Below, piece by piece: positions 7,554-63,964 of a stretch of DNA of 64,000 nucleotides. A program made the position numbers and the translations under genes. Source of the stretch: a virus (lineage: Duplodnaviria; Caudoviricetes). Location of the stretch: positions 160,001 through 224,000 of the IMG/VR virus record IMGVR_UViG_3300028603_000017, one strand, 5' to 3'. The first letter of the stretch is position 1, and each line of letters begins with the position of its first letter. The notes beneath the pieces are model-generated. The model made no database searches, was not told the origin of the DNA, and saw nothing but the letters and a program-made list of their open reading frames with translations.

Positions 7554-9440
7554 ATGGCTATTCATGACGGCACTTCACAACAAGCCGCACAACCTCAAGC
7601 AGCTACCCAAGCCGCATTTGATGCTCCTCTAGCAGCTACTGCAGCTGCACCTCAATCGCAAGCACAACAACAAAAAATGAACCAAACTTTCTCCTTTCAC
7701 TCCAACAGCGGTATCTTCGGCACGCCTATCGGTCGCACACCTGGCACGGAAGTGCTGGTGAGCCTGCAAGAAAAGCTCACCGAAATCTACAAGCAAGCCA
7801 AGGACAGTTCTTTTGAGTTTGCGCTCTTTCCTCTGGACAAGAACAACGAACAACAGCTGTATTTCTCAGCTCTGGTTGTTCTGGGTTTTGTACGTGGCGA
7901 TCGCAAGAACGCTGCCTACCACACCCTGATTCTGGAAGCTTCCAACGACGATCCAGGCTCTATCCATCAGCAAGTCCAAAACGACATGATCGAAGTGATT
8001 CGTGTTGCTTCGGATGCTTCGGATAACGAACTCAACAAGATCGCTGTGGAAAAGCTGACTCAAGCTTTCCCTGGCGTGCAGCTGTTTAACGCTGACTCTA
8101 TGGTTGTTCCTCGAAAGTTCAACCTGGAAGACAAGACAGCGGTGCACAATTTGGCACTGAACGCTGCTATGGCCAGTACCACGGAGCTGCGCAAGCGCAC
8201 TCCTGGTTATAGCGATCTGAATATGGCTGGCTTTGCTCGTGACTCTAGCCTGGTGGTAACACCTCGCTTTGAAACCAGCACTGTCAAGAACATTGATGAG
8301 CTGCCTCGTCGTCAAGACGTCAAGATCGTGTTTGGCTCTCAACAAGTCAAGCAACAAAACAACCAGTCTCTGAATTCAGGTGATCGTTCTGCTGCTCTGG
8401 CAGAGATCTCTGGCTATATTGACCTGCTGTGGGCTCCGGTTAATCCCGTGGCTCAATACGGTATGATGCCTGTGCCTGGCTATCAGATGCCTGCTCAAAA
8501 GTATGCAGCTAACCTGATCATTACCAACTTCTTCAGCCCTCGCCTGTCGACTCTGGCCGGTGTTCTGCTGGCTCTGACCACCGTCAAGGCTTTCTCCGAT
8601 CAGAACAACTGGTACGGTGCTTTCCGATCCAACGGCGTGCGTAGCAATATGCGCGATATTGGTTATCTGAACATCGAAGCCAATCTGGGTGGTGACCCGA
8701 ACCAGCCTGGCTCTCCTGTGGAAATCTCTATGGATTCCTACGGTGCGGCAGATCTGTATCGTTATCTGAACCAGCTGATCCGTCCGGGTCTGGCTATTTC
8801 GATTGACGTGCCTGAGTCTGGTCCTGAGTCCTGGCTGCTCTCAGTTCTGAGCGTAGCTGCCTCTGGCAGTGAGCACTCTGGTGATGCACAGCGCATGATC
8901 TTCAACGCTGCTCAAACGCTAACCAACGGTAACTTTGCGAATTTCTTCCCGCAAGGTGCATCCATGTTCGACAACGTTGGTAACCCTGTACATCTTGGTT
9001 ACTACGAGTCCGACAAGGATACCTACCGTGATATCCGTGATATCGACTACGTGGCTGTCGCTGCTCTGAGTCGTGATCTGGATAGCATCAAGCGCTGGTC
9101 TGATACCTGGACGGCTACGTCTGTTCCTCTGGGCAAGCGCATGGATACCCGTCAGCGCTTCATCCGTGATCTGACTGGTGGTAAGGCTGTGTTTACTGGT
9201 AAGGCTAACCGCGTTACCTTTAGCGCTGCTTTCATCGATGCTCTGGTCAAGGGCTGCGCGGCTGTGGGTGTTACGCCTCGTCTGGACGCCAATGGTCTGG
9301 GTAATGTGGTGGTGGATCGCGGCACCGCGTCCTTCATCGATCAAGCTCTGGTGGGTCCTGCACCTACTAACTTCTTCAGCTCCGGTATTGTGGGTGGCTA
9401 TACCAATAGCTATGCTCCCAACAACTTCCGTACCTGGTAA
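7554..9440 (+). CDS. chmA: chimallin, major phage nuclear shell protein (phiKZ gp54-like)
   Basis: 628 aa with a Q/A-rich flexible N-terminus, RDIGYLN and RDIRDIDYVAV motifs, GC-richer codon usage suggesting high expression, and position just upstream of the nvRNAP beta-prime gene. Confidence 0.85.
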   Translation: MAIHDGTSQQAAQPQAATQAAFDAPLAATAAAPQSQAQQQKMNQTFSFHSNSGIFGTPIGRTPGTEVLVSLQEKLTEIYKQAKDSSFEFALFPLDKNNEQQLYFSALVVLGFVRGDRKNAAYHTLILEASNDDPGSIHQQVQNDMIEVIRVASDASDNELNKIAVEKLTQAFPGVQLFNADSMVVPRKFNLEDKTAVHNLALNAAMASTTELRKRTPGYSDLNMAGFARDSSLVVTPRFETSTVKNIDELPRRQDVKIVFGSQQVKQQNNQSLNSGDRSAALAEISGYIDLLWAPVNPVAQYGMMPVPGYQMPAQKYAANLIITNFFSPRLSTLAGVLLALTTVKAFSDQNNWYGAFRSNGVRSNMRDIGYLNIEANLGGDPNQPGSPVEISMDSYGAADLYRYLNQLIRPGLAISIDVPESGPESWLLSVLSVAASGSEHSGDAQRMIFNAAQTLTNGNFANFFPQGASMFDNVGNPVHLGYYESDKDTYRDIRDIDYVAVAALSRDLDSIKRWSDTWTATSVPLGKRMDTRQRFIRDLTGGKAVFTGKANRVTFSAAFIDALVKGCAAVGVTPRLDANGLGNVVVDRGTASFIDQALVGPAPTNFFSSGIVGGYTNSYAPNNFRTW

Positions 9441-10086: not shown

Positions 10087-12045
10087 GTGGCTGTATCTGA
10101 AGAGTTAGTTAATTTCAACCAGCTATTTAATCAGCTAAAGCAACCTCCCTTGATTATCAACGATATTGTTGAGACATCAGCAGAGGAAAAAGATACACTG
10201 AAGAATCTGATATTTACTAAGTATGATTCTGATGTGATGAAAAACGTACCTAGCTGTGACTGTGGTAGTATCACAGGTGAATACAATATCGGTGTTCTAT
10301 GTAAAAACTGTGATACCGAAGTTGTATCAGCTGTAGATAAAGAGCTAGAGCCTATTCTTTGGGTAAGAGCGCCTAAGAATATTCATGCATTAATTAATCC
10401 TACTGTTTGGACTCAGTTATCTCTGAGATTCAAGAAGAGTAATTTTGATACTATTCGCTGGATTTGTGATACAACTTATAGAGTAGGACCTAATGATGGA
10501 GCTATTGTAGCTGAGCTGCAAGAAGCTGGTATTACCAGAGGTTACAATAACTTTATTGAAAACTTTTACGATATCATCAATCGCTTATTTGAGATGAGGA
10601 GTTTTTCCTCTAAATCAAGAGTGACTTATGATCTACTACCACAATTGCTGGTAGAAAATAAAGATTCAATATTCTCTCAATATCTACCACTGGTTAACAG
10701 AACCATGCTAGTAATTGAGTCTACGACTGTTGGTACATATGTCGATCCATTTGTACCTACTGCTATTGATGCTATTTTAACAGTAGCATCAATTGATGTG
10801 GATGAATCTAGGTTTTCTATTAGGACAAAGGAAAACAGAGTTGCTAAGTTCCTATCTGGAATCAGTAGTTATTACTATAACTTTGCGAAAAACAATCTAG
10901 GTAGAAAGTCAGGCACCTATAGGCAACACGTTTATGGATCACGATCTCACTTCTCATTTAGAGCGGTGGTGTCGTCTTTAACGGACGCTCACCAGTATGA
11001 TGAGATTCATATTCCGTGGGGTATCGGAATTACTATATTTCGATATCACATCATCAATAAACTCATTCGACGAGGATATACCGTCAATCAAGCGATATAT
11101 CTGATTAATGCACACGCAAAGGTATTTCATCCACTCATTAACGAGATCTTTAAAGAACTCATTGATGAATCACCTCGTAAAGGTGTCGATGTAACTATTA
11201 ATCGAAATCCCTCTTTGGTACGTGGATCTATTCAAAGAGTGAGGATTACTAAAGTCAAAGAAGATACCTCAATCAATACTGTTTCATTCAGCATTTTGAT
11301 TGTAGGTCCCATGAACGCTAAAGATTGGTGTTCTAAAAGCTCCTTAATTGCTGGGAACTCCTGTAAAGGACAATCAGCAGCTGATCCTAGATACATATCT
11401 AGGCGAGTTCAACGACTAGTCGAAAGACGTACAGCCAAGCGGCTGGAAACAGGAGCCAGTCTCTGAATAAGAGATGGAAGATATAGTCTGAACATCTGTG
11501 GTAACACAGAGCTGGATTCACTATCCGGGTAATGCGTAGCGAACATTGCTGAACATATTTGGATTTTGACGGTGGAAGCATTGCCGTCTCGAAAGCTTTT
11601 GAATTGCTGGGAACTCTCACACCGAGACAATCAGCAGCCAAGATCTTATTTGCTTACCGGTAAATAGGATAAGGTTCAACGACTATCCCGAAAGGGAGTA
11701 CAGCCAAGCGGCTGGAAGCGGAAGCCACCAAACCAGGTGAAGATATAGTCTGAACATCTATGGTGACATAGAGCGAAGCAGGTAATGCTGCGGGTTAGGA
11801 AATAGCGAGCCTAGCTGAACAATACGGATGCCCTTAATTTCACTTTGACTTTAGATAACGATTTGTCTGAAGAGCTCAAGCATCTTGATCCACATAAGAG
11901 CTGTTTTGAACTCGATGAACCTAGAACCATCTCTGGCAATCTCTCGATTCCCAAGACAGTTGTAGGCACAATTAGTAATTGGTTACATTTTGAAGAACCT
12001 GATAACACACCCACGGACTTTATGAAGTCTATTGCAATAGGTTAA
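10087..12045 (+). CDS. non-virion RNA polymerase beta-prime N-terminal/catalytic subunit (phiKZ gp55-56.1-like), spliced: join(10087..11319,11562..11573,11827..12045), 487 aa
   Basis: Zn-binding CDCG...CKNC, KSGTYRQHVYGSR, RAVVS and NRNPSL motifs; joining the three exons in frame restores GPMNA-DFDG-DALNF, i.e. the catalytic NADFDGD. Confidence 0.92.
11320..11561 (+). ncRNA. group I intron 1 (IA2-like, 242 nt, no homing endonuclease ORF)
   Basis: 5' exon ends in U and pairs with IGS GGUGUUC (U-G at the splice site); core elements P AAUUGCUGGGAA, Q AAUCAGCAGC, R GUUCAACGACUA, S AAGAUAUAGUCU; P7.1/P7.2-like hairpins; terminal G at 11561. Confidence 0.92.
11574..11826 (+). ncRNA. group I intron 2 (IA2-like, 253 nt, no homing endonuclease ORF)
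   Basis: Exon GACGGU pairs with IGS GCCGUC; P10 GCAUU pairs with 3' exon GAUGC; same P/Q/R/S cores; terminal G at 11826. Confidence 0.92.
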
Positions 12046-12050
12046 TTAGC

Positions 12051-12662
12051 ATGAGAGTAGTCTCTGGCGGTACTGCTGCCTGGAATGCGATAGCATACGG
12101 ACAGCAAAACCCTCTTAATCTTGGGTATTTTAAAAGTCAACTAGAGAACATTGGACAAAACCTGAATGAACAAGCCAAAATCTTTTATCAGGATGTCCAA
12201 AGTCTTTACGATAAGTTCAACAGCTCTGAGGCAATGCGCTTGATGCGCTCAGCCATGAAGTCTGCTGCATCACTGTTTAATGATAATATCATTAGACCAC
12301 TGACATCAACAGATGAGCTACAAAACGCATCTATACAAATGCAAAGATGGGTAATGGCTAATCCCGTTATTCGTCAGATGTACCACAATCAGGAATGTGA
12401 CGGGTATTCTGATACATATGTGGATATGGAGCCTGGCAAAATAGGTGAAGCTCATTACGACTATCGCAGGGTGATGGACGGCATTGTGGTGTGTGATGAG
12501 GATCAAGAGTCCTTTACACAGTACTTTGAAGATCTGCATGAAGGTGATAGAGATTTGATTCTCAGTGAGCAAAGCGATATTTTGACAACATGGTCTTTCA
12601 TGGAAGCTATGGTCAAAGCACTCAAAGATGATCCAACGTCTCAATATGGTGGTCAGCTTTAA
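12051..12662 (+). CDS. conserved Chimalliviridae core hypothetical protein (phiKZ gp59-like by position)
   Basis: 203 aa with a GYSDTY..PG..HYDYRRVMDG block, directly after the nvRNAP gene. Confidence 0.7.
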   Translation: MRVVSGGTAAWNAIAYGQQNPLNLGYFKSQLENIGQNLNEQAKIFYQDVQSLYDKFNSSEAMRLMRSAMKSAASLFNDNIIRPLTSTDELQNASIQMQRWVMANPVIRQMYHNQECDGYSDTYVDMEPGKIGEAHYDYRRVMDGIVVCDEDQESFTQYFEDLHEGDRDLILSEQSDILTTWSFMEAMVKALKDDPTSQYGGQL

Positions 12663-63520: not shown

Positions 63521-63597
63521 CCGGCCGTAACTCAGCGGATAGTAGTAATCCCCTTCTAAGGGATAAGTCGGGGGTTCGAATCCCTCCGGCCGGACCA
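63521..63597 (+). tRNA. tRNA-Arg (anticodon TCT)
   Basis: Acceptor ccggccg/cggccgg, anticodon arm atccc-cttctaa-gggat, GTTCGAAT T-loop, encoded CCA. Confidence 0.9.
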
Positions 63598-63624: not shown

Positions 63625-63713
63625 GCCCGGATGGTGAAATTGGTAGACACAACGGACTTAAAATCCGTCGGCCTTAACGGGTCGTACCGGTTCGATTCCG
63701 GTTCTGGGCACCA
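63625..63713 (+). tRNA. tRNA-Leu (anticodon TAA)
   Basis: Anticodon arm acgga-cttaaaa-tccgt, long variable arm, GTTCGATT, A73, encoded CCA. Confidence 0.93.
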
Positions 63714-63879: not shown

Positions 63880-63964
63880 GGGTGTGTGGCCGAATGGTTA
63901 GGCAGCGGCCTCATAAGCCGTGAGGGAAACCTCTAAGTAGGATCGTGACCTATCGCACCCACCA
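63880..63964 (+). tRNA. tRNA with anticodon CAT (Met or Ile2) on a class II, long-variable-arm body
   Basis: Acceptor gggtgtg/cgcaccc, anticodon arm gcggc-ctcataa-gccgt, variable arm gagg-gaaa-cctc, atypical T-loop ATCGTGA, A73, encoded CCA. Confidence 0.8.

Follow-up and report, generated by a model that had tools for sequence, protein, structure and literature searches.

Two putative group I introns around a 12-nucleotide exon within the catalytic motif of a jumbo phage RNA polymerase gene

Introduction

How can a phage make an active RNA polymerase when the codons for a catalytic motif of the enzyme are divided among three separate pieces of the gene? The question is raised by an uncultivated virus (IMG/VR record IMGVR_UViG_3300028603_000017; 261,198 bp, judged 95% complete), of which bases 160001-224000 form the 64-kb window analysed here; coordinates are those of the window unless another sequence is named. 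In its gene for the N-terminal beta' (beta'-N) subunit of the non-virion RNA polymerase (nvRNAP), a homolog of phiKZ gp55, the codons for the motif NADFDGD are interrupted twice. An earlier note on this DNA proposed that the interruptions are two group I introns surrounding a 12-nucleotide (nt) micro-exon. Our analysis makes it very probable that they are self-splicing introns of the phage IA type, lacking open reading frames (ORFs) and lying 12 nt apart within the codons of the motif, and that the motif is a hot spot for intron homing. Two key questions that follow are: (i) whether other readings of the locus account for it as well; and (ii) whether the arrangement is peculiar to this phage.

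Results

Anatomy of the interrupted gene

The gene spans 10087-12045 and is divided as follows (a hyphen within a motif marks an exon boundary here and below).

10087-11319, plus strand: exon 1 of the nvRNAP beta'-N gene; GTG start, 411 codons, ending ...GPMNA (last codons ATG AAC GCT)
11320-11561, plus strand: intron 1, predicted group I, ORF-less, separating the A codon from the D codon; 242 nt with a terminal G
11562-11573, plus strand: micro-exon GATTTTGACGGT, encoding D-F-D-G; 12 nt
11574-11826, plus strand: intron 2, predicted group I, ORF-less, separating the G codon from the D codon; 253 nt with a terminal G
11827-12045, plus strand: exon 3; 72 codons and stop, starting GAT GCC CTT and reading DALNFTLTLDN...SIAIG

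Exon 1 matches positions 1-417 of the PHROG profile phrog_2987 ('RNA polymerase beta subunit'; E 2.9e-137) and exon 3 matches positions 422-475 (E 1e-7), so that four profile positions are missing between them, which fits the DFDG of the micro-exon. By tblastn, the exon 1 gene is 34.8% identical to PHIKZ055, and the best cultured relative is Burkholderia phage FLC9 (gp381, 48% identity). The gene for chimallin, the protein of the nuclear shell, lies just upstream (7554-9440). Together, the profile match, the two identities and the chimallin neighbour show that the virus is a nucleus-forming jumbo phage and that the gene encodes the N-terminal part of beta' in its non-virion RNA polymerase.

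Removal of both introns restores the host frame and the conserved residues. The spliced reading, MNA-DFDG-DALNF, contains an intact NADFDGD and gives a protein of 487 amino acids (aa; 411 + 4 + 72), the same length as an intact homolog at 71% identity. It agrees with the intron-less homologs of FLC9 (LNADFDGDQLNF) and FLC4-3B (LNCDFDGDALQF), both of which read NADFDGD, and with 56 intron-less IMG/VR loci; exon 3 itself matches the C-terminal tails of intron-less homologs (tblastn). Two of the three Mg-binding aspartates of the polymerase are encoded by the micro-exon, and we infer that both introns must leave the pre-mRNA if a 487-aa subunit with all three catalytic aspartates is to be made. 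In place of the full subunit, the ORF list of the window holds a 459-aa ORF (10087-11466) and a 66-aa ORF (11845-12045). The boundaries of exons, introns and micro-exon given in the earlier note are correct to the base, and the truncated 459-aa protein and orphan 66-aa ORF that it expected from automated annotation are those in the list.

Ribozyme cores

The Rfam group I model RF00028 matches the window at only two places, 11309-11511 (78.9 bits, E 2e-18) and 11541-11773 (93.7 bits, E 8e-23), both above the gathering score of 50; the same two matches are obtained from an independent assembly (L107). Intron 1 can be folded into P3, P4, P5 (with a GUAA loop), P6, P7, P7.1, P7.2, P8, P9, P9.1 and P9.2. 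The presence of P7.1 and P7.2 points to subgroup IA, which is typical of phage introns.

Pairing was scored across P3, P4, P5, P7, P7.1, P7.2 and P9 in three sequences, all from the same genome: introns 1 and 2 and a further intron, Z (described below). All 34 core pairs hold in the three paralogous copies (101 of 101 cells paired), the P3/P7 pseudoknot included, and 10 pairs are changed on both sides, whereas shifting the 3' partners by 1-3 columns leaves 30-48% of cells paired and at most two doubly changed pairs. The covariation thus offers modest but consistent support for the predicted cores. P6, P8, P9.1 and P9.2 are out of register in the MAFFT alignment and form in each intron from differing sequences; for intron 2, P8 is absent from the local fold and was identified by eye. 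The core strands P, Q, R and S are present in both introns, in keeping with the full cores that the earlier note had described. A twintron, in which one intron lies within another, was considered and rejected: the introns are adjacent, a coding exon of 12 nt lies between them, and each has a complete core.

Directly before their 3' splice sites, both introns carry a terminal hairpin with the loop UA(A/G)CGA followed by CUGAACA...G (11529-11561 and 11793-11826). The hairpin is common to phiKZ, Goslar, the loci L048 and L053, two other introns of the same genome (X and Z, below) and many relatives.

Splice-site pairings

Each intron has its own guide for the two splice sites, with the P10 guide located in the loop of P1.

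11313-11333, plus strand: P1 of intron 1; GAACGCU (11313-11319) with GGUGUUC (11327-11333), 7 bp, U11319.G11327 at the splice site; local fold -8.7 kcal/mol
11321-11326, plus strand: P10 guide of intron 1; AAGAUU with GAUUUU (11562-11567), 6 pairs, 2 of them G.U
11568-11588, plus strand: P1 of intron 2; GACGGU (11568-11573) with GCCGUC (11583-11588), 6 bp, U11573.G11583 at the splice site; local fold -8.3 kcal/mol
11578-11582, plus strand: P10 guide of intron 2; GCAUU with the opening GAUGC of exon 3, 5 bp

The U-G pair at the 5' splice site and the terminal guanosine (G11561 and G11826), both claimed in the earlier note, can be read directly in either intron. The P1 sequence of intron 2 recurs in introns at the same position in L059 and Serratia phage 2050HW. 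The micro-exon is divided exactly between the two ribozymes: its nucleotides 1-6 are the P10 partner of intron 1 and its nucleotides 7-12 are the P1 partner of intron 2, with zero overlap. The two ribozymes therefore do not compete for exon bases, and either order of splicing is possible.

Independent assemblies and an allele without intron 1

Contigs from four read sets, SRR6484323, SRR35904054, SRR7082979 and SRR35904055, encode a protein identical to the 459-aa read-through product. Those from the first three span the whole twin structure with the three junction strings intact (99.1-100% identity), and the SRR35904055 contig stops inside intron 2. Across 10087-12100, 13 differences from the window are seen in each of the two variant contigs, with 1 change in 495 intron nt versus 10-12 in 1452 exon nt. 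The sole intron change at strain level (11764 T>C, in intron 2) turns the P9 loop from GUGA to GCGA, both of which are GNRA loops. The SRR35904054 contig also has an additional 67-aa ORF that matches HTH_OrfB_IS605 (L108:2922-3125); it lies downstream of the polymerase gene and is absent from the window.

One further contig, IMGVR_UViG_3300014206_000091 (99.74% identical over 12,745 bases), has AACGCT joined directly to GATTTTGACGGT, after which the contig ends. The exact joining of exon 1 to the micro-exon confirms the borders of intron 1 to the base and, given the near identity of the two alleles, indicates that the gain or precise loss of intron 1 was recent. Presence or absence of an intron at a fixed site is thus polymorphic here, and also between the loci L115 and L114 (see below). 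Exact look-ups gave no match for the exon 3 start in IMG/VR, none for the exon 3 start and exon 1 end in JGI metagenome contigs, and no record for the 66-aa exon 3 ORF.

Copy number and other introns of the genome

An intact NADFDGD copy elsewhere, a possibility raised in the earlier note, is not found in the 95%-complete genome. A six-frame search with exon 1 found no second copy of the gp55-like gene, and the only other gene with DFDGD, that for the virion polymerase beta', is itself split by an intron; both DFDGD-bearing genes thus depend on introns. Three further RF00028 introns lie outside the window, all in virion RNA polymerase genes.

G000:C1:130220-130661: intron X, splitting LGAD-FDGD of the virion beta'-like gene
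G000:C1:~134007-134310: intron Y, after the pair of aspartates in 'SDSDD' of a beta-like gene
G000:C1:~135300-135559: intron Z, in GDRLG-KGVF of the same beta-like gene as intron Y

All five introns of the phage are therefore placed in polymerase catalytic motifs. Intron Y may share its site with the PhiPA3 gp210 intron, which is reported at two aspartates (PMC11620839).

In blastn searches introns 1 and 2 are each other's best match, followed by introns Z and Y of their own genome. Globally, they are 76% identical to each other and 71-72% identical to their positional counterparts in a relative with the same arrangement (L111), and the cross pairs are 67-69% identical. A tree of 27 intron cores, which carries no branch supports and for which 307 of 1472 columns were kept from a poor alignment, does not group them as sisters. 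Orthology by site together with some homogenisation within the genome fits these comparisons best; recent duplication, gene conversion and separate acquisition of the two introns are possible alternatives.

No homing endonuclease ORF is seen in either intron: apart from the read-through of exon 1 there is no plus-strand ORF of at least 40 aa, and the minus-strand ORFs have no Pfam match. Among relatives, introns between the G and D codons do contain endonuclease ORFs, namely HNH in L023 and LAGLIDADG in L116 (a weak match), so that the ORF-less copies in the window are most likely descended from mobile introns. No homolog of the L023 intron endonuclease is present in this genome. A free-standing HNH_3 endonuclease ORF lies 69 bases beyond the end of the window (G000:C1:224069-224188; 198-aa open frame, 40.5 bits). 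In phage T4, MobE moves the I-TevIII intron in trans; by analogy, the HNH_3 ORF is a candidate for moving the ORF-less introns. It adjoins a tRNA cluster, and three tRNA genes lie within the window (63521-63594, 63625-63710 and 63880-63961; RF00005, 45-58.5 bits).

Multiple introns in relatives

Other phages share the arrangement. Introns at the A-D and G-D sites with a 12-nt exon between them occur in three distant lineages (L111, L114 and L116), at protein identities of only 47-54%, and other combinations are found in further chimalliviruses.

L111 (ENA, 54% protein identity): A-D and G-D, micro-exon GATTTCGATGGT; RF00028 84.0 and 90.9 bits
L114 (209-kb contig): A-D and G-D, micro-exon GATTACGATGGT; junctions read
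L116 (216-kb contig): A-D and G-D, micro-exon GATTTCGACGGT; LAGLIDADG-like ORF (weak match) between micro-exon and last exon
L115: A-D intron only; intron start and last-exon sequence in common with L114
L059: NAD-YDG-DQLN, 9-nt exon; two cores, 58.8 and 49.5 bits
L057: NAD-FDGD-ELN; 75.4 and 61.9 bits; 5' border of the micro-exon uncertain by 1-2 nt
L073:4749-6158 (IMGVR_UViG_3300037502_002993, 220 kb): three introns, APN-AD-FDGD-ALIL; micro-exons GCGGAT (6 nt, AD) and TTTGATGGTGAT (12 nt, FDGD)
L102:3216-5023 (Escherichia phage Goslar, NC_048170.1, gp247 and gp185): exon 1 end ...NAD-TT; intron with HNH (gp186); island CGACGGTGAC(GCT); second core; then ATG AAC AAC...

In L073 the first core is supported by Rfam (the only one above threshold), the third by our own nhmmer profile and the second by eye; RF00028 misses the second and third introns of L073 and the second intron of Goslar.

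The case of Goslar is of particular use, as the phage is cultured and the arrangement is therefore open to direct testing now. As in the window, two group I cores flank a tiny exon in the same motif of the nvRNAP beta' gene, whereas in Goslar the first site is within the F codon, the second is after the motif, and the first intron carries the HNH gene gp186. The island encodes (F)DGD(A); a P1 for the second intron was looked for and not found, and the micro-exon is accordingly either 10 or 13 nt. The second core was detected with our own profile (nhmmer, E 2e-10), and its P7, GAAUA/UAUUC, is a compensated variant of GACUA/UAGUC. The spliced joint is predicted to be ...GCCGACTT-CGACGGTGAC(GCT)-ATGAACAAC, with the protein stretch NADFDGDAMNNH. 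The RefSeq record annotates one Intron_gpI, the HNH-bearing first intron, and labels the last exon, gp185, a hypothetical protein.

Insertion sites at the motif

A scan of IMG/VR with a nine-sequence profile gave 80 loci, 56 of them uninterrupted through the motif and the other 24 broken in the motif or upstream of it. Junctions were placed by tblastn of the C-terminal tails and by eye. The survey of homologs yields at least nine insertion positions at the motif in Chimalliviridae.

N-A: phiKZ, U5, L048, L053
A-D: this window
D-F: L062, L100, L020
Within the F codon, phase 1: L039, L054
Within the F codon, phase 2: Goslar
D-G: L096
G-D: this window, L023, L032, L035, L060, L077, L094, Serratia phage 2050HW
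After DFDGD: phage PA7, L095
One codon beyond the preceding site: Goslar, if its micro-exon is 13 nt

A simple motif test of the 120 closest protein clusters finds 41 intact and 79 that end at or near the motif, mostly at G-D and D-F, with about a dozen at A-D; these counts are of called proteins that end early rather than of individually confirmed introns. The same gene is broken further upstream in L077, L044, L056 and L094 and in clusters P0086, P0090, P0091, P0109 and P0110, for example at QRN-PSL and 'ES(R/P)DKC'. L044 has three intron cores (own nhmmer profile), and L077 and L094 have two each (Rfam).

Discussion

The twin introns around a 12-nt DFDG micro-exon are borne out by the RF00028 matches, by the P1 and P10 pairings and by the restoration of the frame. 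In the mechanism that we propose, both ribozymes would splice themselves from the pre-mRNA and thereby ligate exon 1, the micro-exon and exon 3. Intron 1 could complete its splicing during transcription, before the core of intron 2 has been synthesized, and co-transcriptional folding would thus favour the removal of intron 1 first. That the introns splice catalytically, in which order they do so and how the copies arose are points that we infer from sequence.

Several points weigh against this proposal. The phage is uncultivated, and the arrangement was read from its DNA. Two ribozyme cores with a spacer of only 12 nt might interfere sterically, and the 95% completeness of the genome leaves some room for a missing intact copy. 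For phiKZ, a long-read (Oxford Nanopore, ONT) transcriptome study reported no evidence of intron splicing under its conditions (PMC10914365).

The last of these observations would also fit a locus in which one or both introns have decayed and can no longer splice alone, leaving a pseudogene or a gene dependent on a protein cofactor, and the loss of the endonuclease ORF from both introns is in line with such decay. We nevertheless consider decay improbable, because the cores are intact and show compensatory changes, strain variants show less change in the introns than in the exons, the gene is single-copy, belongs to the chimallivirus core and adjoins the chimallin gene, and the architecture has been kept in lineages only 47-54% identical in protein. 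Still less credible, to the point that it can be set aside for practical purposes, is an artefact in which a metagenome assembler stitched two strain variants of one intron in tandem. The introns do have long identical stretches in common, and the micro-exon is the exact point at which a related contig breaks off, but each intron's guide matches its own 5' exon, the spacer is exactly the missing DFDG, contigs from four independent read sets agree (three spanning the whole, one ending in intron 2), and the complete genome of the cultured phage Goslar holds an analogous pair.

A different possibility would operate alongside normal splicing, not in its place. If the 5' site of intron 1 were joined to the 3' site of intron 2, the micro-exon would be skipped and an in-frame but dead subunit without DFDG would result, which could tune or poison polymerase assembly. 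Both introns are in phase 0, and exon 3 begins with GAU like the micro-exon, which makes such skipping possible; three of the six P10 pairs of intron 1 can also be formed with exon 3. Exon skipping by similar tandem group I introns is attributed to phage Twort, as cited in PMC3073962. We think regulated skipping unlikely here, although less so than decay: the P10 of intron 1 is better on the micro-exon (6 bp) than on exon 3 (3 bp), there is no sign in this locus of selection for the skipped product, and the other exon lengths that occur (6, 9 and 10-13 nt) are not always in-frame when skipped. Self-splicing of both introns with inclusion of the micro-exon is thus the reading that we favour.

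One of the closest known systems is phiKZ, whose gp55/gp56 intron was predicted by Mesyanzhinov 2002, as cited in PMC10914365. The earlier note was right that phiKZ gp55 has a single intron; its site, N-A, is 3 nt upstream of that of intron 1. The phiKZ intron interrupts the same gene and motif and has in common with the window introns the 3' end ...CUGAACAAUACG and the P3-P9 core (nhmmer, own intron profile, E 9e-30), but it is about 1.4 kb long, contains the gp56 HNH ORF and is not associated with a micro-exon. In the solved enzyme structure, mature phiKZ gp55 reads 417-DFDGD-421 and continues with further residues (PMC8287921). Because the residues after DFDGD are encoded only by the downstream exon, the two phiKZ exons must be joined.

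The PhiPA3 gp210 intron, in the virion RNA polymerase beta gene, encodes an active nicking HNH endonuclease that acts in phage competition (Birkholz 2024, PMC11620839). Like the introns of the present genome, it belongs to group I and interrupts a catalytic motif of a chimallivirus RNA polymerase, but it is a single intron in another gene and bears an endonuclease, whereas the window introns are ORF-less. Other parallels are found in a Staphylococcus phage Twort gene with three group I introns that resemble one another and with exon skipping or alternative joining (Landthaler & Shub 1999, via PMC3073962), and in mitochondrial cox1 (e.g. of placozoans), for which the account in PMC5436844 gives micro-exons bounded by group I introns. 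The Twort gene likewise holds several similar introns, which, in the secondary account cited, are not described as clustered within one catalytic motif; placozoan cox1 likewise has very short exons between group I introns, as far as that account goes, but in an organelle genome.

The earlier note knew of no described twin-intron micro-exon arrangement at this active site. This part of the claim stands for the literature searched, in which most subscription journals were outside reach: no description of tandem introns or micro-exons at the DFDGD motif was found there, only single chimallivirus polymerase introns and the PhiPA3 competition study. What does not stand is any uniqueness to this phage, given the several uncultivated chimalliviruses with the arrangement and the pair at other sites in Goslar. 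The window arrangement appears to belong to a wider pattern that is itself undescribed.

Why two or three introns should be kept at one motif can be addressed tentatively. It is possible, though we would not call it probable, that the 21-24 nt encoding NADFDGD are a contested homing site, and that each intron is kept because it destroys the target of a different endonuclease from co-infecting phages. If true, this would extend the interference competition of PhiPA3 gp210 to a form of stacked immunity, and the recurrent 12-nt exon would be the minimal spacing that gives one ribozyme its P10 and the next ribozyme its P1.

The arrangement has a practical consequence for annotation, in that gene callers shorten the subunit and orphan its last exon, as is seen in this phage, in Goslar and in the majority of close homologs surveyed. 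For RNA mechanism, it would provide a natural test of the packing distance of group I ribozymes, of splicing order and of exon skipping. Finally, for the biology of these phages, the catalytic centre of an essential polymerase would hinge on two accurate ribozyme reactions, and on up to three in relatives, around exons of 6-13 nt. The density and variety of introns at the motif, taken together with the PhiPA3 work, suggest an ongoing conflict among co-infecting nucleus-forming phages.

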